DNA of 64,000 nt from Candidatus Woesearchaeota archaeon (GCA_964578845.1 CAZOEF010000003.1:5009-69008), one strand, 5' to 3'. Numbered from the stretch's first letter, positions 9,249 through 21,830 are shown. Made by a program: numbers and translations. The notes: generated from the letters alone by a model not told the origin.

Positions 9249-9599
9249 TTAGCAAATGAAGAGCTCTTTCTTTTCTTTATGTCCAAGATTCAAAGTTAGA
9301 GGTATTGGAATGTGAATTTGCTTGCCTTCTTTTTCAAATGCCATTGTCAGGAGGACATAGACATTATTATTCCTGTAGGTGACGGACATCTTTGTATGAC
9401 TGATTGAACTCAAGGATTCTTTAGAAATATCCAAATGTTCGCTCGCATCAATTATTTCTATACCTGAGATATAGTTTGTATGGCTGACATCCAGGATAAA
9501 ATCTCCTATGTCTATTGATGCCTTGACTTTCTCTCCGTCCGATATATATAATATATCATTTTGCTCATCATAATCTATTAATCTTATTTGTCTAGTCAT
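9249..9599 (-). CDS. DUF2283-like small protein
   Basis: The sequence is IDYDEQNDILYISDGEK...ISGIEIIDASEHL. An ATGA overlap links it to the upstream gene. Confidence 0.55.
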   Translation of the reverse strand: MTRQIRLIDYDEQNDILYISDGEKVKASIDIGDFILDVSHTNYISGIEIIDASEHLDISKESLSSISHTKMSVTYRNNNVYVLLTMAFEKEGKQIHIPIPLTLNLGHKEKKELFIC

Positions 9600-9883
9600 T
9601 TTCTCCTCCTATTCCAAACGCTTATTACTTTTAATAACTTTGTCCTGATCTCGGCGATGACTATCAATGAGTATCTTGAGCTCATCTTATACCATAGTTT
9701 ATAGCGATAAACACCCTCCTTTCCTAACTCGATCTTTTCAAGCAGATTAGCATTCAATAAGAGCCTCCTTACAAGCCCTTCATTGACCGGCCTAAACCTT
9801 ATTCTCTTATAAAAATGAGGATCAAAAGATATATTCTCTTGATTTAATGATCCAAGTAATATCTTCATCTCTGCGATATCCAT
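9596..9883 (-). CDS. DUF4258-like putative toxin
   Basis: The segment FDPHFYKRIRFRPVNEGLVRRLL and the C-terminal beta-rich part resemble 14741..15070. It is paired with a DUF2283-like gene. Confidence 0.4.
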   Translation of the reverse strand: MDIAEMKILLGSLNQENISFDPHFYKRIRFRPVNEGLVRRLLLNANLLEKIELGKEGVYRYKLWYKMSSRYSLIVIAEIRTKLLKVISVWNRRRK

Positions 9884-9914: not shown

Positions 9915-9939
9915 TTAATCAATAAGATTCCCAGATTTG
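9915..9939 (+). repeat. 25-bp direct repeat, left copy (ttaatcaataagattcccagatttg)
   Basis: It is identical to 10866..10890 by direct comparison. Confidence 0.9.
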
Positions 9940-10063: not shown

Positions 10064-10696
10064 CTATTTCTTGTAGTTTCTTAGACATTTGATCAAATCC
10101 CCTCTCCCCATAATAAAATAATAAAATTTCTGCCTTAGTTCATTTGAATATCCTCTTGGAACAAAGCAGCTCAGGACTTCCTTTTTCAGCGATCTTATCA
10201 ACTCGAAAGCTGGAACAAAATCAGAGTCTCCAGATATTAGTATAGCACAGTCTAGATTATCATTTATTGATTCCTTAACCATATCAATAGCTATCCATAC
10301 ATCTATGCCTTTTTCTTTCTGTGAATGGTCTGTGATATCAAGAAAGCTTCCTTCAACTATTGGTCTGCAAACATCACATAAATCCCATGAGTTTAGCAAA
10401 TCCTGTCTTTTCCTTAATATCTCCTTAGTGGATAGTCTCTGAAGCTTTCTGGTTACTATTTTAATGCCTTTCTTTTCAAGATAGCCTAAGAAAGATCTTT
10501 GGTTTCTGTAAACCAAAGGGTTGTCTTTTATGCTCGGCATTGAAACATACCATCTTATCTCCATTATATCTAATTTGTATCTACTAGATATAAGATCTGA
10601 GACTTTGATTATATCTATATCTCCCGGCTTGAACCAGTGCTTGATATTATGATACCAATTATTAGCATCCACAAATAAAATAGCTCTCTTAGTCAT
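10064..10696 (-). CDS. NYN-domain (LabA-like) ribonuclease
   Basis: The blocks ILFVDANNWYH, EKGIDVWIAIDM and ILISGDSDFVPAF match the NYN catalytic layout. Confidence 0.7.
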   Translation of the reverse strand: MTKRAILFVDANNWYHNIKHWFKPGDIDIIKVSDLISSRYKLDIMEIRWYVSMPSIKDNPLVYRNQRSFLGYLEKKGIKIVTRKLQRLSTKEILRKRQDLLNSWDLCDVCRPIVEGSFLDITDHSQKEKGIDVWIAIDMVKESINDNLDCAILISGDSDFVPAFELIRSLKKEVLSCFVPRGYSNELRQKFYYFIMGRGDLIKCLRNYKK

Positions 10697-10909: not shown

Positions 10910-11614
10910 GTGATGATTAATAGACTGGATGAATATTCTTGTATCATGAGAATAATAGATATTCCAGAAGGAAATAGACCAAGAGAACGTATGGAAAAAT
11001 ATGGGGTTGAAGTATTGAGTGATGCTGAATTATTTGCTATTATATTAAGAACCGGAAGTAAGCAAGAAAATATAATAGATATTTCTAATAGATTGATTAA
11101 GACTTACGGATTGAGTAATGTTTTTGATTGTTCATTGAAAGAGCTCCAACAAATTAAAGGAATAGGAAAGGCCAAAGCTATGCAAATTTTAGCTATTTCT
11201 GAATTAAAAAGAAGATCTTCCTTGCATAAAAAAGAAATAAAGAAAATAACTAATGCTAAAGACGTGTTTGATTTATTTCACGATAGACTAAAAGACAAAA
11301 AACAAGAAGAATTCTGGATATTGCTATTAGATACTAAAAATAACATAATTTTAGAAAAACTAATCACGAAAGGAATACTAGACGCTTCAATAATTCATCC
11401 TAGAGAAGTTTTCAAAGAAGCCATAAAAAACTCAGCAAATAGAGTAATAATTTTACATAATCACCCAAGTGGAAATCCAGAGCCTAGCGAACAGGACCTA
11501 AAGATTACGCAAAAATTAATCGAATCTGGAGATTTAATAGATATAGAGGTCCTAGATCACATAATCATAGGAAAAGATAATTATTGGAGTTGGATGGGAG
11601 ATGACAGAATTTAA
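10910..11614 (+). CDS. radC: RadC-like JAB/JAMM-domain protein
   Basis: [28 protein letters not shown] is the HhH part. [20 protein letters not shown] is the JAMM motif. Confidence 0.85.
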
Positions 11615-14600
11615 GGAATATAATTTGGTGTAATGGCCTCTGCTTGTCTTAAAACTAGTTCAGTAGCTTTCTCTCTTCCAGAAGGAGGATAACCATATTT
11701 TTTCAAAATCTTTTTAACTTTTAATCTCAAATCAGCCTGAACACTTTCTCTAACGGTCCAGTCAATTTTTACATTATTCCGTATCATATTAACTAGTTCA
11801 AGGGCTATTATCCTTAGTTTTTCATCCCCTAATACATCTATTGCTTCCTCACAATCAGCTAAAGCATCATAAAATGCTTTTTCATCATCATTAAGCCCTA
11901 AATCATGCCCTTTTTCCTGCTCTTCTCTCATTTTTTTAGCCAAATCAATTAATTCCTCAATAGCTTGAGCAGCTTCGATACTTCTATTAGTGTATCTATT
12001 AATTATTCTTTCAAGCATCTCCATAAAAGATTTCTCTTGCACAACATTCTTCTTGAATCTAATCCTGATATCATCATTTAGAAGCTTTTTCAAGGCTTCA
12101 AAGGCTAAATTCTTTTGAGGAAGACCCTTAACTTCAGACAAGAATTTATCTGATAAAATAAAAATGTCTGGTTTTTGAATACCTGCAGCCTCAAATATAT
12201 CTATAATTCTATCTGAGATTACTGCTTTTGATAATATCTGTTTTATTACACTATCAAATTCAATTGAATCTTTAGGAGAGATAGTGATATTTTTTATTAT
12301 TGATGACTTGATTGCCTGAAAGAATCCTACCTCATCTCTTATCTTAGCCGCCTCTTCACTAGGAACTGATAATGCATAAGCTTTGATTAAAGCAGTAGTT
12401 TCCCTAATAAATCTCTCTTTTAATTTATCTCTGCCTTTTAGAATATGTTCAATTGCTCCAGGTATTATTGATAGTCTTTTTTTCGGACTAAGTTCAAAGA
12501 ATTTCCTATAATTGTAACCATGAAACATTGCTTTAACAATGTCATATTTTTCTAACATCTTTTTAATCGCTTCCTTATTTTTATCCTCAATTAATTTTCC
12601 CTTACCTCCGCTTGCTGTGTATTGCATTACAGCATCTTTGAGTTCTTTACCAATTCCAAAATAATCGACAATTAATCCTGCAGTTTTATCCTTATATTTT
12701 CTATTAGCTCTGGCTATTGTTTGCATCAAACCATGGCTTTTCATTGGCTTATCAATATACATTGTATGGACAGAAGGAGCATCAAAGCCAGTAAGCCACA
12801 TGTCTCTAACTATTACAATTTTTAACTCGTCTTGAGGATCCTTGAATTTATCTCCTATTTCATCTCTTCTTTTCTTATTTCTGATGTGCTCTTGCCACTC
12901 CTTAGGATCTGATGAAGAACCAGTCATTATTACTTTGATATTGCCTTTTTTATCATCTTCATTATGCCAATCAGGTCTTAGGGCAATAATTTCATTATAT
13001 AATTCAACACAAATCCTTCTAGACATTCCAACAATCATCGCCTTTCCATCAAGTATTTTTAACCGTTCTTCAAAATGATCAACAATATCTTTAGCTATTC
13101 GTTTAATTCTTTCAGGACTTCCAACGACCTTCTCAAGTCTTGCCCATTTACTCTTTAATTTTCTCTTTACTTCATCATCTTCTGTTAATTCTTCAATTAA
13201 AGGATCAATCTTTCTTCTTTCTTCTGGTTTGATTCCTAGTTTAGCTAGTCTGCTTTCATACATCAACTTTACTGTAGCATTATCATTAACTGCTTGCTGA
13301 ATGTCGTATTTATCCACATAATTACCAAAAACTGCAGGAGTGGATTTGTCTTGTTTTTCTATAGGAGTACCTGTAAAACCAATAAAAGAAGCATTAGGCA
13401 AGGCATCTCTTAGATATTTAGCAAATCCATATCTAATTAAAGCTGTTTCTTTAACAATATGGGCTGAGAAACCATATTGTGTTCTGTGGGCTTCATCAGC
13501 TACTACAATTATATTTTTCCTGTTAGATAATTCAGGGTATTTTTCTTCATTTTCAGGAAAGAATTTTTGGATTGTTGTAAATATTATTCCACCTGAGGAT
13601 TTTTTCAATAAGGATTGTATATCTTTTCTAGATTCTGCATTTTGAGGTTTTTGTCTTAGTAATCCAGAGCATCTAGAAAAGGTTTTGAAGAGTTGATCAT
13701 CTAAATCATTTCTATCTGTTAAGACTACAATAGTCGGGTTTTCAAGTTCTTCTGCTAAAGCAAGTTTTCCTGCATAAAAAACCATAGAAAGAGATTTACC
13801 AGAACCTTGAGTATGCCAGACGACTCCGGCTTTTTTAGTTTCTTTTGTAGCCTTTATTGTTGATTCCACTGCTTTATTTACAGCATTATATTGATGGTAA
13901 GAAGCAATTTTCTTTATATCTTTATCAAAAACTATGAAATTTCTTAATAGATCAATTAAAGTGTTTTTATTAAACATACCTTTTAGAAGAGTTTCAATCC
14001 CTAGTTTGTTTTTAGGCATTTTTTCATCTATTGTTTTCCAAGCCATAAACCACTCTCGTGAAGATGAAAGAGTGCCTGCTTCAGCTAAATTTCCATCACT
14101 AATTACTAAAATCTCATTGTACCTAAATAATGAAGGAATCTGATCCTTATAGTTTTGTAGCTGAGTAAAGGCATCATTGATAGTTGCTTTTTCTTCCGCT
14201 AGATTTTTTAGTTCAATAACTACTAATGGAAGTCCGTTAATGAATAAAATAATATCAGGTCTTCTGTTGTATTTTTCTTCAATAATGGTAAATTGATTTA
14301 CTGCTAAAAATTCGTTATTTTCTGGTTTTTTGAAGTCAATCAGGTTTACTAAATCATGTTTTATTTGGGATCCTTTTCTGTAAGAAACTGAGACTCCTTC
14401 TACTAAGAGTTTATGAAATTGTTCATTGTCTAAAACTTGGTTTGGAGAGGATGTTCTTAACACCTTTCTTATAGCTTCTTCAATAGAACCTTTGGGAATT
14501 GAAGGGTTTAACTTTTCAAGGGCTTTCAATAATCTATCTTTTAGAACAACTTCCCTAAAGTCTTTTCTTTCAGGATTTTTCCCTCCTGGAGATATCTCAA

Positions 14601-14682
14601 ATCCATTCAGAATTTTATAGTTTAAAGCTTCTAGAATATCTAAAGCTAGTTCTTCAACTTCGTTTTCCGTTATTTTTGTCAT
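11611..14682 (-). CDS. hsdR: Type I restriction enzyme, R subunit
   Basis: The protein is 1023 aa. Walker A is HTQGSGKS and the DEAH box is [10 protein letters not shown]. It has the typical N-terminal nuclease region and a C-terminal helical domain. Confidence 0.9.
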
Positions 14683-14740
14683 TATTTTCTGATACTCAAT
14701 AATCGAACAATATTTTTATATGCTTTGCCATTAACAAAAT

Positions 14741-15070
14741 ATGCTAGAAGGCAATAAAATCCAAAAAAAGGTAGAAGTTGAGAAGTTCTTGAGCTTTATC
14801 AGGGAATATAAGAAGGAACAGATAGAGTGTACTATCCATACATTCTTCAGATTAAGCGAAAAACAGAGAAAAATCTATACCTGTGATGAACTAAGGACCA
14901 TTTTAACTGAAAAAAGACCATTTTTAGTAGGGCTTCAATACAGCGGGAATTATGCTGTATTTTATAAACATCAGAGCAAAAACCTTAAAATAATAGTCGA
15001 TTTAACCAACACAAAGGTTAAAATAGTTACTTTCTTTTTCATAGAAAACTGGCAAATCCCGATAATATGA
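14741..15070 (+). CDS. DUF4258-like putative toxin
   Basis: The sequence is CTIHTFFRLSEKQRKIYTCDELRTIL...LKIIVDL..KVKIVTFF. An ATGA overlap links it to the downstream DUF2283-like gene. Confidence 0.45.
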   Translation: MLEGNKIQKKVEVEKFLSFIREYKKEQIECTIHTFFRLSEKQRKIYTCDELRTILTEKRPFLVGLQYSGNYAVFYKHQSKNLKIIVDLTNTKVKIVTFFFIENWQIPII

Positions 15071-15438
15071 AACCCAGACATTTAGAGGCTAAAGGAGAAA
15101 TGGATTATGATTATGTAAATGATATCCTATTTTTCAAGATTAAAAATAGAGAATATGCTTTTTCTATAGAATTTCATAATATGGTTGTAGATATTGATGA
15201 AGAAATGTTTATAGTAGGGATACAAATCTTTGAGGCTTCTAAATTTTTAAGAATGACTAAACAGAATTTAAGGGAAATACCTAAGTGGAGGTTTAGTTCT
15301 AAACTTGAGAATAATACAATAGAGATCAGACTTGACTATCAGATAAAAATAAGGAACAAAATATTAGAAAAAAACCCAATAATAATCCAAGAGAACAAAT
15401 CTGAAAGCTTAAAACCTCAAATGGTCCAAACTATTTAG
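15067..15438 (+). CDS. DUF2283-like small protein
   Basis: The sequence is MDYDYVNDILFFKIKNREY...IVGIQIFEASKFL. Confidence 0.55.
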   Translation: MKPRHLEAKGEMDYDYVNDILFFKIKNREYAFSIEFHNMVVDIDEEMFIVGIQIFEASKFLRMTKQNLREIPKWRFSSKLENNTIEIRLDYQIKIRNKILEKNPIIIQENKSESLKPQMVQTI

Positions 15439-16369
15439 TTAATTTTCGTTTTAGTTCCCTATATTCTTTCAAATACAACTCAATGGTTGGCTTTAAATTT
15501 TTACTTATCCCATATTCCTTTAATGTGGCATAATATTCTGCCCTATTTTTGAAATCAATATTTAAAGGAGGAAGATTATGCTTGATCAATATATTATTTA
15601 GTAAAATTCTTCCAACTCTTCCGTTACCATCTGCAAACGGATGAATATTCTCAAACTGGTTATGGATAACGGCTGCTAAGACTAATGTGGGATATTTTAG
15701 TTTATTTTCTTCATACCATTTAACTAATTCTTTTAATAAATGAAGAACTCTTGGTTGAGGGGCTCCTTCATGGACTACTTCGCCTGCTTTATTTGTCACT
15801 ACGACTTCTTCTCCTTTTTTTCTTAGTTTTCCTGCAAAGGGTTTTGAATTTTTGAATACTATCTTATGTATTTTCTTTATTAATTCTATTGAGAGATGCT
15901 CTTTTGTTTTTCTGATAAATTTAATGGCTTCATCTACTCCGTAGGTTTCTGCTATATCTTCTTTTGATTTATCAGGCCATTTATCTTCTTCTAAAAGATC
16001 TTTTACCTCTTTTTGGTTTAATTTGCTTCCTTCAATAGCATTAGTATTGTAAGTGAATATTTCAGAAAAAATCTGCCAATCTTTCTCTGACAAATGTTTT
16101 ACTTTTAGAGGAATACCTTTCTCTAATTCTTTAATCTCTTTAATCTGCTCTTTAGTTAATTCAAATTGTAAAGGATCACTAATAACATCATATTTATGAA
16201 TTTCTTCAAGAATTAGCTTTTCAGCTATAGTTTTTCTCTCCTCTAGTTTATCCTTAGTTAAGTCTACACCTAAATATTTCCTAAATTTATGGACTTTTCT
16301 ACCCTCTCTATAAGAATGAGCTAAATAATACTTTATCTTCTTTCCAACCCTTCTTCTCTCAATATGCAT
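15431..16369 (-). CDS. Fic/DOC family protein (AMPylase-type)
   Basis: The canonical Fic motif HPFADGNGRVGR is present. The size is 312 aa. Confidence 0.85.
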   Translation of the reverse strand: MHIERRRVGKKIKYYLAHSYREGRKVHKFRKYLGVDLTKDKLEERKTIAEKLILEEIHKYDVISDPLQFELTKEQIKEIKELEKGIPLKVKHLSEKDWQIFSEIFTYNTNAIEGSKLNQKEVKDLLEEDKWPDKSKEDIAETYGVDEAIKFIRKTKEHLSIELIKKIHKIVFKNSKPFAGKLRKKGEEVVVTNKAGEVVHEGAPQPRVLHLLKELVKWYEENKLKYPTLVLAAVIHNQFENIHPFADGNGRVGRILLNNILIKHNLPPLNIDFKNRAEYYATLKEYGISKNLKPTIELYLKEYRELKRKLTK

Positions 16370-16379
16370 ACTAATATAA

Positions 16380-16446
16380 TAGGTGACTACATATTTAAAC
16401 TTTCTGTCGTTAGGTGACTACAACTGCCCCTTTTTGTAGACACCTA
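16380..16446. promoter_or_regulatory. Three copies of taggtgactaca (two direct, one imperfect inverted) upstream of the Fic gene
   Basis: Direct copies are at 16380..16391 and 16411..16422. The inverted copy tgtagacaccta is at 16435..16446 with 1 mismatch. All lie 11-77 nt upstream of the start at 16369. Confidence 0.4.
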
Positions 16447-16466
16447 TTTTTTAGATAAAACCGGGG

Positions 16467-16487
16467 CTTTTTGCCAAGGGCAAAAAG
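16467..16487 (-). terminator. Perfect 9-bp hairpin CTTTTTGCC-AAG-GGCAAAAAG after the 16524..17207 gene
   Basis: The hairpin is read directly. It lies 37 nt past the minus-strand stop and has T/A runs inside the stem. Confidence 0.5.
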
Positions 16488-16523
16488 TGGTGAATCAAGT
16501 ATATATTTGTTTCTTAAAATATA

Positions 16524-17207
16524 TTATCGGTCAATTTCTTCCAAAATTTTATCTTTTATTATCTTTTTTACTTGGCCTTCAATATCAAAGTTATTTTGAA
16601 GTTTATTTTTGATAAATACAAATTTGGGCTTATCTCCGTAATCAGCTAAAGACTTTCCTTTAAGATGATTACAATGAAACTGTGCAACCAAATGCCTTTT
16701 TGGAGGATTCTGAAATTCACAATAATATAATGTTTCATCCTTGCCAACCTTTATGCCATGTCTTTGACCATGTCCAAATAAAATGATAGAACTAATATTT
16801 TTATTATTAATTATTTTCTTAAGTTGATTAGATGTAACTCTGTCGTAAACTCTATATGGAATTTTCCTTTTTTTTAGATACTTCACAATTCTTTTTACAC
16901 CATCTATCCCGAAAGAATAAATATTTTCTGGAAAGTAATTATTTGCCAATACTATCGCTACATGATTATCCAACCTTCCTTGTTGAGAGTTCTTACTCAG
17001 ATATCTTCTATATGTTACAAAAGAAATCAACAATAGAGGAAAGACTAAAAGATATTGATAGCTTTTTTTACCGGAACCCATCAATCTCAAATAAAGTTTT
17101 GAGTATAGAGAAGAAAGCTCATAAATAAAATATAATCCGATTGGCATAAAAATAAAAATTGTAATCAAAAATGAGATAATATAAATTAACATAAGTAAAA
17201 AAGTCAT
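16524..17207 (-). CDS. Hypothetical membrane protein translationally coupled to hsdS
   Basis: Two N-terminal hydrophobic helices precede a soluble domain (IILFGHGQRHG...). It overlaps the hsdS stop by 4 nt. I recognised no family. Confidence 0.5.
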   Translation of the reverse strand: MTFLLMLIYIISFLITIFIFMPIGLYFIYELSSLYSKLYLRLMGSGKKSYQYLLVFPLLLISFVTYRRYLSKNSQQGRLDNHVAIVLANNYFPENIYSFGIDGVKRIVKYLKKRKIPYRVYDRVTSNQLKKIINNKNISSIILFGHGQRHGIKVGKDETLYYCEFQNPPKRHLVAQFHCNHLKGKSLADYGDKPKFVFIKNKLQNNFDIEGQVKKIIKDKILEEIDR

Positions 17208-18412
17208 TTTACTCTAATCTCTCCGTTCATTAGTTTAGGCAAAAGAGAATCTCGGATTTGTGAGAGTCTTTGGTTTTGGAAACAATTAAGAGATATTTGA
17301 TTAAATATTGGTTTTATTACCTCGTTGAAATTATCTAAAGTTTCTTTATTTGGGATTAATAATTCATAATTATCAACATTGTTTTTGTTAATGTGTTGTT
17401 GCGCTCCTCCAGTTTGATGGGATATTATCTCTTTAATTTCATTTTTAATCCAATAATAAATATATTCCGATTTTATTCTTTCGCTTTCAATTATACCGAT
17501 AACTGACTGATTAGCACAAGAATCTATTTCTAATCTACTTACTTGTCCAAGTGTTGCCCCAGTAATAGCTAAAACTGTAGTTCCCTTAGGTAGGAGTTTA
17601 GCTGCTGAATTATTCATGCCGGAAATAGTTATTTTCTCAGAAGGTTCCATTATTCTAAATTCATTTACCTTTCCTGAGTTTATCCAATTAATATTTCCGT
17701 TCCAGAAAATGGGATTTGTTCGATCCGGAGTCCCACCTAAAATAGTTTTTAGTTCTTTTCCAATTTTGGACATTTTCCAATCATCCTTTCTTTCATCAAT
17801 AAACCATTTCTTAAATAAAGCCTGGCCAATTTCCTCAAGAGTTTTGTTCATTTTATTGTTTAATTCTATTTTAGCATCTAAGTCGGAAAGGATTTTTGCT
17901 ATTGCTTTTTGCTCAGAAAGTGGAGGTAACAGGACAAATATGTTTTTGAAAGTATCAGTTGTAATTGTGTTAAAAACCGCTCCATGGCCAACATTTCTAA
18001 TCTTATTGATATTAAACTTCAGTAAATAATACAAGAAATCATTTGTAAGTTTCTCCTTAGCATTTAGTCCATAACATGATTGATTAAATGCCATTTCTCT
18101 AGATAATTGTCCTATTTCTCCAACAGTCCCTCTAGCAGAAATAATTATTTGATCTTTTTTCAATAATTTAGTTGAACTATTTTTAAGCCCTTCTTGAGTT
18201 ATATGCTTTTCAGTATCATAAATCCACCTTCTATCACCCACAAAGTCTACAACTGATATCCAGGGAATATCTCCGCCCCAGTATTCTGGAACAGAGGTTT
18301 TTGGAGTTCCGCCGCCAATTATATATACGACTCCATATAATGAATGTTCTGTCCAATCTTCAGGAATTTTTCCGATCTTATTTTTATTAAGTTTTACTTT
18401 TTTATGCTCCAT
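17204..18412 (-). CDS. hsdS: Type I restriction-modification system, S (specificity) subunit
   Basis: The protein is 402 aa with a two-TRD layout. The conserved central and C-terminal helices are LPPLSEQKAIAKILSDLDAKIELN and RLSQIRDSLLPKLMNGEIRV. Confidence 0.88.
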   Translation of the reverse strand: MEHKKVKLNKNKIGKIPEDWTEHSLYGVVYIIGGGTPKTSVPEYWGGDIPWISVVDFVGDRRWIYDTEKHITQEGLKNSSTKLLKKDQIIISARGTVGEIGQLSREMAFNQSCYGLNAKEKLTNDFLYYLLKFNINKIRNVGHGAVFNTITTDTFKNIFVLLPPLSEQKAIAKILSDLDAKIELNNKMNKTLEEIGQALFKKWFIDERKDDWKMSKIGKELKTILGGTPDRTNPIFWNGNINWINSGKVNEFRIMEPSEKITISGMNNSAAKLLPKGTTVLAITGATLGQVSRLEIDSCANQSVIGIIESERIKSEYIYYWIKNEIKEIISHQTGGAQQHINKNNVDNYELLIPNKETLDNFNEVIKPIFNQISLNCFQNQRLSQIRDSLLPKLMNGEIRVK

Positions 18413-19055
18413 GTTTATGACTCCCGACCATACTATTACAAATATGAACTATCTTTCCTGTATTCTCTGATACCCTATTGATTTCATCGAAATCATTATT
18501 TTGAGGAAAATCTTCTTTATTAAAAGTCAGAAAAATAACCCAAGAATATTCTCTTAAATCTTGACAAGCTATACTTTCCCAAATTAAGGCATCTCTAAAA
18601 TTTCTATCTCCCTTTTTATTAAATGGTTTCTCATGATTGATTGATTTTTGTAATATTTTATCATAGATTTCCAACTTTTTTTCTTCGGGAATGCTAAATA
18701 AAACAAAGTTGCTTGCAGAGTTAACCAGCTTAATTAGGAAATCTGAATAGTTAAATGAATCTTTAAATTTTATATCGAAAGAACCGGCCTCAAGAATCTC
18801 CATTTCCTTAAATTGGTTAGCCTTCCTTTTAAGTTCTTCAAAGTCGTCATTAAATTTACTGCTCCTATGAAACAAGTGCTCTTTTAGAGTTATTTCTGAC
18901 ATACCGATATAGACTTTATCTTTGAGATTTTTTTCTTCTAGGAATCCTTCAAGCTCAATAAGAAGACCGCTTGAAGATATTCTAGAATGATTCACATTAT
19001 TGCTTTTGCCCTCATTAATGCAGTTTGTATCCAATATCAATAAAGTTTTATCCAT
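18402..19055 (-). CDS. PIN-like (DUF4935-type) protein
   Basis: The sequence is LLILDTNCI...NFRDALIWESI. It is embedded between hsdM and hsdS. Confidence 0.4.
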   Translation of the reverse strand: MDKTLLILDTNCINEGKSNNVNHSRISSSGLLIELEGFLEEKNLKDKVYIGMSEITLKEHLFHRSSKFNDDFEELKRKANQFKEMEILEAGSFDIKFKDSFNYSDFLIKLVNSASNFVLFSIPEEKKLEIYDKILQKSINHEKPFNKKGDRNFRDALIWESIACQDLREYSWVIFLTFNKEDFPQNNDFDEINRVSENTGKIVHICNSMVGSHKHGA

Positions 19056-19084
19056 TTTTTACCAGTCTCATCTACGTTCAATTT

Positions 19085-19561
19085 TCATTTTTCCTTAAAT
19101 CCATCTTTAAGAGGATTAAATACAACAACCTCTTTCATTCCCTCAAATTCTGCATCTATTGAAAGAATATTCTTAACAAGGTTGTTCCTCATAATAACTC
19201 CGTGGATTACATCTCCCAAACTACCCTTGAATTTAAGTTGCCTCTGTTGTATTTCGTAAAAGAATTTCTCAAATGAATAATCATTCTTTTTTCCTTCAGT
19301 ATTAATCCATATAAACCTAATACCATCAAGTTCGTTAGTTCTAATTAATTCTTGTATGTAGTTAGCAACTTTAGCAGGAGATTTTTTCTTTTCCCTTATT
19401 AAGACTTTAACCGTTTCTGTGAGCGCCCAATCTGAAGAAACAAATTCTGAAGAGTCCTTAACTTCTTCAATAAATTTTTTAATTTTTTTGTACCTTTCCT
19501 CTTTCAAAAATTTACTAACAAATATGCAACTATCAAGGTAAATTACCTTCTTCTTTACCAT
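19085..19561 (-). CDS. PIN-domain protein
   Basis: The conserved acidic positions lie in VIYLDSCIF, ALTETVKVL, GDVIHGV and LSIDAEF. Confidence 0.6.
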   Translation of the reverse strand: MVKKKVIYLDSCIFVSKFLKEERYKKIKKFIEEVKDSSEFVSSDWALTETVKVLIREKKKSPAKVANYIQELIRTNELDGIRFIWINTEGKKNDYSFEKFFYEIQQRQLKFKGSLGDVIHGVIMRNNLVKNILSIDAEFEGMKEVVVFNPLKDGFKEK

Positions 19562-19755
19562 TTTTTATACCTCTTTTTTTTAGCATAGAAATCTACTTTA
19601 ACAGGTTTCCTCACAATTTTTGTTGCCCTGAATTTAGCAACACTGCCATCAGATCTTTTAAATTTTACAGTGACAGGTTTCTTTATTGGCTTTGTTGCCC
19701 AAAAATTCACCCTTCTTCTACGCACCATTTTCTCCTTCTCCATCAGCAAATTCAT
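19555..19755 (-). CDS. Small polybasic protein with an internal duplication, upstream partner of the PIN gene
   Basis: ATKPIKKPVTVKFKR and ATKIVRKPVKVDFYAKKK form an internal repeat. It overlaps the PIN start by 7 nt. The true start may be an internal Met (MVRRRR at about 19725), because the track start overlaps the DUF4145-like gene. Confidence 0.4.
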   Translation of the reverse strand: MNLLMEKEKMVRRRRVNFWATKPIKKPVTVKFKRSDGSVAKFRATKIVRKPVKVDFYAKKKRYKKW

Positions 19756-20302
19756 AGTTTACTTTTAATAACAATTCAACAAATTCAAAACAATTTTGTG
19801 CTTCTTCCTTGGTGCGAGTCTCTATCTCATGATTAGCAATGTTTCCTAGACCCCTTACAGAATCTGCTTTGCTTTTACTCTTCTTGGGAACAATATTATT
19901 CTCGCATAAATAATCCACGTATTCTGCAAATCCAAGATTTTTCTTGGCTCCCTCATGCACTGCAACATTCATTATAACTTTTCTCATTAACATAATTGCG
20001 CCAGTAAAAGATCCAGACTGCATACATTTTCTAACTTCTTCATATACATCATTTATGTTCCTCGGAAGTTTTTTTATCTCCTTACCAGGTAAAGGTGCAA
20101 GTACTTCTCTATTAGCATTATCAACTATTACCGGAGCATTGCAATGATGGCAAATATAAATATGGCTATGTCTACGACCTAATCCATCATTAGTGTAATA
20201 TGCTAGCTGAGAGGCTATCTTTTCACCGCAATTCCAACAAATAAAAGACTTAGAATCTAATATTACAACGCCGTCCCAACTTGCTCCTTTAAAGCTATAC
20301 AT
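19718..20302 (-). CDS. DUF4145-like protein with an N-terminal zinc ribbon
   Basis: The Cys pairs are CWNCGEK...CHHCNAP. The C-terminal part is LGNIANHEIETRTKEEAQNCFEFVELLL. This family is commonly associated with R-M loci. Confidence 0.55.
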   Translation of the reverse strand: MYSFKGASWDGVVILDSKSFICWNCGEKIASQLAYYTNDGLGRRHSHIYICHHCNAPVIVDNANREVLAPLPGKEIKKLPRNINDVYEEVRKCMQSGSFTGAIMLMRKVIMNVAVHEGAKKNLGFAEYVDYLCENNIVPKKSKSKADSVRGLGNIANHEIETRTKEEAQNCFEFVELLLKVNYEFADGEGENGA

Positions 20303-20303
20303 C

Positions 20304-21830
20304 TTAAACCCTCCACCCCAGTTTCTCTAAATTATTCTTAATATCTCCTTCTAGTTTCTCACTCTCCCTAAACTGTTCACTTAACTCTTTAGTCAATCTA
20401 GTCATCTTCTCCTCAAAAGGCTCGCCGTCATCTTCCACTTCAGCAACACCAACATATCTCCCAGGAGTTAAAATAAAACCGTTCTTACTAACATCCTCTA
20501 AACTAGCACTCTTACAAAATCCAGCAACATCCTCATACTTTCCCTCTCCTCTCCAAGCATGATAAACATCTGAAATCTTCTTAATATCTTCATCACTTAA
20601 TTCCCTGTGCCTTCTATCAATCATTCTTCCCATATTTCTAGCATCAATAAACAATATCTCACCCTTCCTCTCCCGTTTACCATGATTACTCTTATCCTTA
20701 GTCAAAAACCATAAACAAGCAGGAATCATAGTATTGTAAAATAATTGCGAAGGCAAAGCAACCATACAATCAACTAAATCATCCTCAACAATCTTCCGCC
20801 TAATCTCTCCTTCCCCGGAAGTATTACTAGACATTGAACCATTAGCCAAAACAAAACCAGCAATACCACTAGGAGACAAATGATGTACAAAATGCTGAAC
20901 CCAAGCAAAATTAGCATTACCAGTAGGAGGAACTCCATACTTCCATCTAACATCTTCCTTAAGCAAATGCCCATTCCAATCACTAGAATTAAACGGAGGA
21001 TTAGCCAAAATATAATCAGCCCTCAAATCCTTATGCTTACTATCATGAAAAGTATCTCCCCACCCAATATTTGACTCAATACCTCTAATAGCCATGTTCA
21101 TCTTGCAAAGCTTCCAAGTAGTAGAATTAGACTCCTGTCCATAAACATAAATATCTCCCTTCTTACCAGAATGTTCCTCAACAAACTTCTCTGATTGAAC
21201 AAACATCCCTCCTGAACCACAACAAGGATCGTAAATTCTGCCTCTAAAAGGCTCAATCATCTCAACTAATAACTTAACAATAGACTTAGGAGTGTAAAAC
21301 TGCCCTCCCTTCTTACCCTCAGCATCTGCAAACTGTCCCAAAAAATACTCATACACTGCTCCAAGCATATCCTTACTCTTACTCTCCTTATCCCCTAAAC
21401 CAATAGTTCCAATCAAATCTATCAACTCACCTAAACGTGTCTTATCTAATGACTCTCTAGCATAATCCTTAGGTAAAACCCCTCGCAGAGAAACATTCTC
21501 CCTTTCAATTGAATCCATAGCAGCATCAATAAGCTTCCCTATAGTTGTCTGTCTAGCATTTTTCTGCAAATATTCCCATCTAGCCTCAGGCGGAACCCAA
21601 AAAATATTCCTAGCCTTATACTCATCTATATCCTCTGGATCTCCATCCGGATCTTGCTTAATCTCATTATATGCCTCCTCAAAAGAATCAGAAATATACT
21701 TCAAGAAAATGAGACCTAAAACCACGTGTTTGTACTCAGCGGCATCCATATTGCTTCGAAGCTTATCAGCCGCTATCCACATCTTCTGCTCAAATCCCAG
21801 TTTCACCCCGTTAGAGTTTTCTCTGCCCAT
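20304..21830 (-). CDS. hsdM: Type I restriction-modification system, M subunit (N6-adenine DNA methyltransferase)
   Basis: The N-terminal HsdM domain contains [11 protein letters not shown]. The SAM site is DPCCGSGGM and the catalytic motif is NPPF ([12 protein letters not shown]). Confidence 0.92.

Follow-up and report, generated by a model that had tools for sequence, protein, structure and literature searches.

A type I restriction-modification locus of a Candidatus Woesearchaeota archaeon carries eight embedded genes and probably acts as a dock for defence and toxin cassettes

Results

We analysed a 64,000-nt stretch of DNA from a Candidatus Woesearchaeota archaeon (GCA_964578845.1 CAZOEF010000003.1:5009-69008; hereafter the window, to which positions refer) that contains a type I restriction-modification (R-M) locus with unrelated genes embedded between its subunit genes. 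Gene identities were scored against Pfam, NCBIfam and PADLOC profiles. The first gene of the operon, hsdM (20304..21830, minus strand), encodes the methyltransferase subunit (Pfam HsdM_N and N6_Mtase, 9e-115; PADLOC MTase_I, 781 bits) and is the only N6_Mtase gene in the 0.98-Mb genome, which is assembled in 6 contigs and is 89% complete. The specificity gene hsdS (17204..18412, minus strand) encodes two target-recognition domains (two stretches of Pfam Methylase_S, 6.8e-50; PADLOC Specificity_I, 6e-102), and hsdR (11611..14682, minus strand) encodes the restriction and translocase subunit (Pfam HSDR_N, SWI2_SNF2, T1R_D3-like and T1RH-like_C; NCBIfam TIGR00348, 1e-196; PADLOC REase_I, 1167 bits). 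HsdM (508 aa), HsdS (402 aa) and HsdR (1023 aa) have the lengths of their relatives and match the models end to end. Judged by domain content, this is an intact type I R-M system.

An earlier note on this DNA had placed the three hsd genes on the minus strand and apart from one another, and our map of open reading frames (ORFs) agreed with that layout. The note had counted seven passenger genes, whereas the map gave eight. Between hsdM and hsdS lie a DUF4145 gene, a small polybasic gene, a PIN gene and a PIN_12 gene; between hsdS and hsdR lie a membrane protein gene, a Fic gene and a DUF2283 gene with its 109-aa partner. Guilt-by-embedding, which considers same-strand genes lying between the genes of one system, applies to six of the eight; the two exceptions, the 109-aa/DUF2283 pair, are encoded on the opposite strand. 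Each passenger is single-copy in the genome. All 11 ORFs of the locus are open, and all are full length except PIN_12.

We compared this arrangement with related loci. The order-level sample comprised 201 genomes, about one quarter of which contain a full-length HsdM-type gene, and 20 such loci were fetched. Contexts of the membrane protein were drawn from metagenome contigs, since species representatives rarely encode it (2 of 201 genomes). Public records with close relatives of the locus genes are labelled Woesearchaeota, Nanoarchaeota or Pacearchaeota. Every fetched locus with an hsdM 72-85% identical to that of the window (order-level loci L106-L111 and L113; metagenome loci L002, L005, L008, L017, L059 and L087) carried embedded genes at one or both junctions. 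The cargo included Piwi and SIR2 (short Argonaute), AbiTii, a Schlafen/AlbA_2 ATPase, an MNT-type nucleotidyltransferase, DUF3800, DUF4145 and PIN_12, with KwaB, HEPN and AIPR genes in the metagenome relatives, and the set differed in every related locus. Because all of these loci carry cargo, the layout that the earlier note had described as a system pulled apart is the normal state of this hsdM lineage, and the contents of the slots are freely swapped. Four loci of a different hsdM family (30-39% identical) were also examined; three have a compact M-S-R order, and in the fourth a lone ORF of 182 aa separates hsdS from hsdR. In one relative (L107; G050:C84, 4902-8179), Piwi (669 aa) and SIR2 (426 aa) genes of a short Argonaute system lie between hsdM and hsdS.

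Another relative (L109; G039:C8, 2226-11339) has the same hsdR and divergent pair as the window. Its hsdM is broken by an in-frame TAG, no hsdS was detected, and the gap is filled by a Schlafen ATPase gene, a DUF3800 gene and a gene for a 427-aa protein without assignment. L109 looks like a decaying version of the window locus. The window locus could itself be decaying, in which case insertions would have severed hsdR from hsdMS and damaged the cargo genes, leaving debris without current function. Such a history would fit the truncation of PIN_12, the 1.8 kb, opposite-strand pair included, that separates hsdR from the hsdMS operon, and the state of the G039 sister. However, the eleven ORFs are open and all but PIN_12 full length, the three hsd genes match their models over their entire lengths, the hsdR promoter region is conserved, and no leftover gene fragments were seen in the spacers. 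A search of 8-26 kb in any frame for remnants of hsd gene ends or of the PIN_12 C-terminus found none, the one extra match being an internal repeat of hsdS. We regard decay as very improbable.

Both ends of hsdS are overlapped by a passenger. The upstream gene (18402..19055, minus strand), which the earlier note had listed as PIN-like, shares 11 nt with the hsdS start and encodes a 217-aa PIN_12/DUF4935 nuclease (45.8 bits; Pfam cut-off, 32) that retains the conserved acidic residues. Alignment with its closest relatives (331-343 aa) showed that about 115 C-terminal residues are missing, and the missing region is the probable regulatory part. Relatives that are 53-59% identical also overlap hsdS from upstream, in the orders Mrr-hsdM-AIPR-PIN_12-hsdS (L002) and NYN-...-PIN_12-hsdS (L003 and L004), and distant ones (21-29% identical, 330-339 aa) occupy the same slot in L059, L106 and L110. 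Only four genes scored above the PIN_12 cut-off among the 201 order genomes, three of them in hsd loci.

The downstream gene (16524..17207, minus strand) overlaps hsdS by 4 nt, as the note had stated, and encodes a 227-aa membrane protein with N-terminal transmembrane helices and a predicted caspase-fold domain. We found 27 homologues besides itself (28 clusters); the family is unannotated and has no Pfam match above threshold. Its members share an invariant GHG...H...Q-x-HCN...G signature, and H146 and C179 do not vary among 22 sequences. The region with this His and Cys was matched by Peptidase_C14 at a sub-threshold 14.9 bits (threshold, 21.4), and 3 of the 22 members were matched. When an AlphaFold2 model (mean predicted local distance difference test score, pLDDT, 85) was searched with Foldseek, the top 50 PDB matches were all caspases (E from 7e-4, probability 1.0, TM-score about 0.4), and in the predicted model His146 and Cys179 lie at the ends of consecutive strands, like the caspase dyad. 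A profile of the family run against PDB sequences gave spurious matches only. The protein is probably a membrane-anchored minimal caspase-fold protein and, by its predicted fold, a putative protease. It is found between hsdS and hsdR in three independent contexts (L005-L007, L008-L010 and L017), and its distance to hsdR in relatives is 6 nt. In a genome in which no hsdM was detected, a weak and stop-interrupted match to this protein (G105:C8:73003-75636) was also seen, at 2 kb from a DUF4145 gene; it may be a remnant of a lost R-M locus.

The position of these two genes is open to a second interpretation, by analogy with PrrC: PIN_12 and the membrane caspase-fold protein would be accessory subunits that monitor the R-M complex. 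HsdM, HsdS and HsdR would keep the effectors latent, and a virus that blocked restriction would release the RNase or protease as suicide effectors, leading to dormancy or to death through action at the membrane. Consistent with this model, PIN_12 genes with only 21-56% identity to that of the window overlap the hsdS start in all of five other loci, three of the four order-level PIN_12 genes are in hsd loci, and the membrane gene is tightly spaced with hsdS here and with hsdR in relatives. There is also the precedent of PrrC, which is almost confined to type I R-M loci (10.1101/2024.01.29.577857). In contrast, the window PIN_12 lacks the very region that is probably regulatory, most loci of the same hsdM subfamily are without PIN_12, the membrane protein or both and have other genes in these slots, and distant relatives of the membrane protein are not in type I loci. 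No PrrC/RloC-type ABC-ATPase/anticodon nuclease was found, as no passenger has an ATPase domain by Pfam, NCBIfam or PADLOC. We consider such a guard arrangement, and the release of latent effectors that it would entail, unlikely.

Immediately downstream of hsdM, the gene at 19718..20302 (minus strand) encodes a 194-aa zinc-ribbon HEPN protein resembling RAZR/PD-T7-4. The earlier description of this gene as Zn-ribbon/DUF4145-like held, with a CxxC...CxxC ribbon and a Pfam DUF4145 match of 7.9e-11 (42.3 bits; cut-off, 23.1); the PADLOC PD-T7-4 model also matched (3.6e-9), spanning residues 16-178. The N-terminal Cys4 ribbon consists of C22, C25, C51 and C54, and the C-terminal HEPN domain contains R150-x7-H158. 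By these motifs the protein has the RAZR/PD-T7-4 architecture of a Cys4 ribbon followed by DUF4145/HEPN with Arg and His, and is a predicted RNase. Its closest homologue (65%) is encoded between a TdeIII endonuclease and its methylase, in a type II R-M system, and DUF4145 genes in operons with R-M systems have been noted before (PMC3710099).

The next two genes form a pair. The first (19555..19728, minus strand) encodes a small polybasic protein, the conserved upstream partner of the PIN gene. The earlier note had given it 66 residues; the gene is present, but because homologues are 51-59 aa long, translation most likely starts at the third Met (Met10), at 19728, giving 57 aa. The overlap with the DUF4145 gene is 11 nt from this start and 38 nt from the first Met. 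The protein has a pI of 11.4 (computed on the 66-aa ORF form) and an internal KKPVxVxF duplication. The second gene (19085..19561, minus strand) overlaps the first by 7 nt and encodes a 158-aa VapC-type PIN nuclease. Its own Pfam PIN score, 23.4 bits, is just below the cut-off of 23.6; the PIN identity given in the note is borne out instead by the acidic residues, which are kept, and by its 18 homologues (45-78% identical), most of which are recorded as PF01850. In L011-L016 and L041, a homologue of the polybasic protein (51-59 aa, 47-67% identity) is encoded directly 5′ of a PIN homologue, whose start it overlaps. The pair occurs beside hsdM in four other contexts. It lies between hsdM and hsdS in L014 and L015, after hsdM in L041, in another type I family with an hsdM only 28% identical in L016, and behind a PLD-SNF2 helicase-nuclease in L011-L013.

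The opposite-strand pair (14741..15438, plus strand) is divergent from hsdR and consists of genes for a 109-aa protein and a 123-aa DUF2283 protein that overlap by 4 nt. It had been described as a DUF4258/DUF2283-like pair. The DUF2283 half was upheld (29 bits; Pfam cut-off, 23), but DUF4258 was not supported for the partner, which had no profile match at E<=10 and no significant fold match; an AlphaFold2 model of the 109-aa protein (pLDDT 88) had no PDB match below E 0.24. In L109 the pair recurs, again divergent from hsdR (81% identical), with a conserved intergenic TATA-like core, and in L061 it adjoins Fic. The genome contains three DUF2283 genes, at 9249-9883 and 14741-15438 of the window and at C1:305700-305996. 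Both DUF2283 genes of the island follow a gene for a basic protein of about 100 aa with a shared H...R...R pattern, and these two DUF2283 proteins share 32% identity.

The Fic gene (15431..16369, minus strand) encodes an AMPylase-type protein (Pfam, 6e-20, 72.3 bits against a cut-off of 24; PADLOC PDC-S04, 6e-36, the best model, and SoFic, 9e-34). The AMPylase motif HxFx(D/E)GNGRxxR and the inhibitory motif (S/T)xxxE(G/N) are both present, as HPFADGNGRVGR at 243 and TNAIEG at 109; the catalytic motif is thus intact, as had been reported. The protein is not a SoFic orthologue, scoring 51.5 bits against an equivalog cut-off of 550 (NCBIfam NF046030). A 154-nt spacer precedes the gene (16370..16523, minus strand), with a 9-bp hairpin and T-tracts followed by a Fic promoter/operator region (16370-16450). 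Here, a TATA box, TTTAAATA, lies about 26 nt before the ATG and is flanked by TGTAGTCACC repeats; two direct TGTAG(T/A)CACC copies surround the box and an inverted copy is found further upstream. Orthologues of this Fic protein, 56-80% identical, are encoded in 72 DPANN genomes. Of 66 loci, 63 have at least one repeat copy and 50 have two or more, whatever the preceding gene, and the neighbouring genes are different in almost every locus. The repeats are also kept in L023, where the order is hsdS-157aa-Fic-hsdR and Fic overlaps an hsdR 81% identical to that of the window; L042 and L087 are similar. Since the upstream region is conserved regardless of the neighbouring genes, Fic is an autonomous and probably autoregulated cassette. 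The first ~90 residues of the protein (RRRVGKKIKYYLAHSYREGRKVHKFRKYLG...) could form a small beta-sheet DNA-binding module, making this region a candidate binder of the repeats. An hsd homologue was found within the flanks of 10 of the 72 Fic loci, compared with a rough chance expectation of less than 1, indicating that Fic is enriched near R-M genes without being tied to them. No gene family recurred next to Fic in more than four of the 72 loci, and we rejected the idea that this Fic is specifically R-M-linked.

From hsdM to the membrane gene, the junctions are, in order, a gap of 1 nt, overlaps of 11 and 7 nt, a gap of 29 nt, and overlaps of 11 and 4 nt. A TATA-like sequence, cttattta, is found about 28 nt 5′ of hsdM, and a 58-nt spacer upstream of hsdR is common to hsdR and the divergent pair. 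The series of seven genes that starts with hsdM and closes with the membrane gene probably forms one transcript, which would end at the hairpin and T-tract preceding Fic. A scan with sigma-70 promoter and intrinsic terminator models, which are not applicable to archaea, gave no excess over shuffled sequence.

The G+C content from RadC through the 158-aa PIN gene is 27-32%, within the lowest 0.1-3% of the 1-kb windows of the genome. Because hsdM has 39% and the genome about 37%, this low-G+C stretch suggests that the locus is a mosaic that was acquired horizontally. No direct or inverted repeats flanking the cargo were found inside the locus. An NYN gene flanking the locus (10064-10696) matched PADLOC HEC-09 (1.8e-15), an experimentally supported embedded defence RNase, and has direct repeats of 25-33 nt on either side, at 9915 and 10866. 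Elsewhere in the assembly, contigs C5 (40 kb, 49.5% G+C) and C6 (11 kb, 70.7% G+C) differ from C1-C4 (about 37% G+C) and are probably binning contamination.

A foreign base composition would also be expected if the gene pairs and toxin-like single genes were addiction modules that keep an acquired island in place and have no antiviral function. Both the basic protein/PIN pair and the 109-aa/DUF2283 pair resemble toxin-antitoxin modules in having overlapping genes, a second DUF2283 pair lies nearby (9249-9883), and a third DUF2283 copy is found elsewhere in the genome. However, a defence role has been shown experimentally or proposed for relatives of the single-gene cargo (RAZR/PD-T7-4 and SoFic/PDC-S04, with the HEC-09-like NYN gene on the flank), and the slots of related loci hold bona fide defence systems, namely short prokaryotic Argonaute with SIR2, and AbiTii. 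Selfish stabilisation seems to us quite unlikely.

Discussion

The interpretation that we favour, and hold to be fairly likely, is that the R-M operon serves as a dock for autonomous defence and toxin cassettes at both of its inter-subunit junctions. The R-M enzyme would cut unmethylated incoming DNA, and the cargo would supply a second line of separate responses of abortive-infection or toxin type, in which the HEPN and PIN nucleases would cleave RNA, Fic would AMPylate proteins and proteins might also be cleaved at the membrane. Embedding would allow the cargo to be co-expressed and co-transferred with the R-M genes without forming one fused machine. Fic would act as a self-contained unit after the hairpin, and the DUF2283 pair would share its 58-nt promoter region with hsdR. 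The identity, order and spacing of the genes and their recurrence elsewhere are observed here; the operon boundaries, the effector activities and any cooperation between the parts are inferences.

The earlier note had proposed a layered defence unit in which R-M is backed by toxin effectors. The layers are supported, as the passengers are of defence or toxin type and most recur in or beside R-M loci; PIN_12, the basic protein/PIN pair, the membrane protein and DUF4145 were all found at R-M genes elsewhere. A single dedicated unit is not supported: the cargo differs in each related locus, Fic has a promoter and operator of its own, and the DUF2283 pair is on the opposite strand.

Several observations weigh against the docking interpretation. 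Only 2 of the 11 DUF4145 genes in the order-level sample are inside hsd loci, the other 9 lying outside R-M, and about 86% of the Fic loci are away from any hsd gene. Relatives of the membrane protein with about 40% identity occur outside type I loci, one next to a Dam-type methylase and another where methylase genes and small ORFs are numerous. The polybasic protein, which had no Pfam match at a threshold as lax as E<=10, is unlike any known antitoxin family, and the truncated PIN_12 may be inactive or deregulated. The operon boundaries are deduced from spacing and from promoter- and terminator-like sequences in AT-rich DNA. Finally, PIN_12 and the membrane protein are so tightly and so repeatedly coupled to hsdS that a genuine functional dependence, which the docking interpretation underplays, may lie behind it.

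Few defence systems have been recognised in DPANN archaea, whose genomes are very small, and here one type I lineage carries defence cargo in every locus examined. Guilt-by-embedding searches can thus draw on the locus and its relatives for candidate antiviral genes of archaea; among them are two families to which no function has been ascribed, that of the caspase-fold membrane protein coupled to hsdS and that of the polybasic partner of PIN. In addition, cargo integrated into the operon can be told apart here from cargo that has merely landed in it, such as Fic with its own operator. As the general phenomenon has already been published, the locus adds examples and leads rather than a new principle. 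Were the hsdS-coupled proteins to guard the R-M complex, they would constitute an archaeal, non-homologous analogue of PrrC.

Individual passengers can be compared with characterised families. RAZR, formerly PD-T7-4, is a zinc-finger HEPN RNase with catalytic R146 and H154 that is activated by phage ring proteins (PMC13017515). The window protein is of the same size class, has the same order of N-terminal Cys4 ribbon and C-terminal DUF4145/HEPN domain, and its R-x7-H spacing equals that of R146/H154; the sequence likeness is at the profile level only. It differs in being archaeal and embedded after hsdM, whereas RAZR is stand-alone and is triggered by a viral ring or portal protein. DPANN archaea are enriched in SoFic and PDCs (PMC12988326). 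The window Fic resembles SoFic/PDC-S04 in its Fic core HPFADGNGRVGR, in a class-II-type TxxxEG 5′ of the core and in being a single-gene module of a kind enriched in DPANN, but about 90 aa at its N-terminus are distinct, and an operator of TGTAGTCACC repeats around the TATA box is not described in the papers cited here.

The polybasic/PIN pair is like VapBC in that a small upstream gene overlaps the gene for a PIN nuclease of about 155 aa and the two are conserved as a pair. It differs in that the partner is very basic, internally duplicated and of no antitoxin family, and in that the pair recurs near hsdM. VapBC membership would call for a PIN score above threshold and an upstream antitoxin of known fold, and the pair has neither. 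DUF4935/PIN_12 proteins are about 350 aa long, with an N-terminal PIN-like domain and a C-terminal alpha/beta region, and are mostly monocistronic and bacterial (Matelska et al. 2017). The window copy shares the N-terminal domain and the acidic residues but is only 217 aa long; like the full-length relatives from DPANN, it overlaps hsdS. The membrane protein resembles clan CD caspases (Peptidase_C14 and the CHAT proteases of prokaryotic immunity) in its predicted fold and in its invariant His (GHG) and Cys (HCN). Its domain is minimal (about 150 aa), below the C14 threshold and anchored by N-terminal membrane helices, and its gene is coupled to hsdS.

Defence genes inside type I R-M loci are well established, from TgvAB (PMC11411939) to the systematic guilt-by-embedding survey of Payne et al. 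2024 (10.1101/2024.01.29.577857), in which embedded genes were co-oriented in 96.7% of cases and from which the PDC models derive. As in PrrC/EcoprrI, TgvAB of Vibrio cholerae VPI-2, Campylobacter rlo and the loci of that survey, non-hsd defence or toxin genes lie between hsdM, hsdS and hsdR in the window. The cargo is likewise mostly on the same strand and variable between related loci, and Fic and the flanking NYN gene match PDC-S04 and HEC-09. Unlike those loci, that of the window belongs to a DPANN archaeon with a genome of less than 1 Mb and has eight passengers at two junctions, two of them on the opposite strand. In addition, embedding in this hsdM subfamily is not occasional but was seen in every locus fetched.

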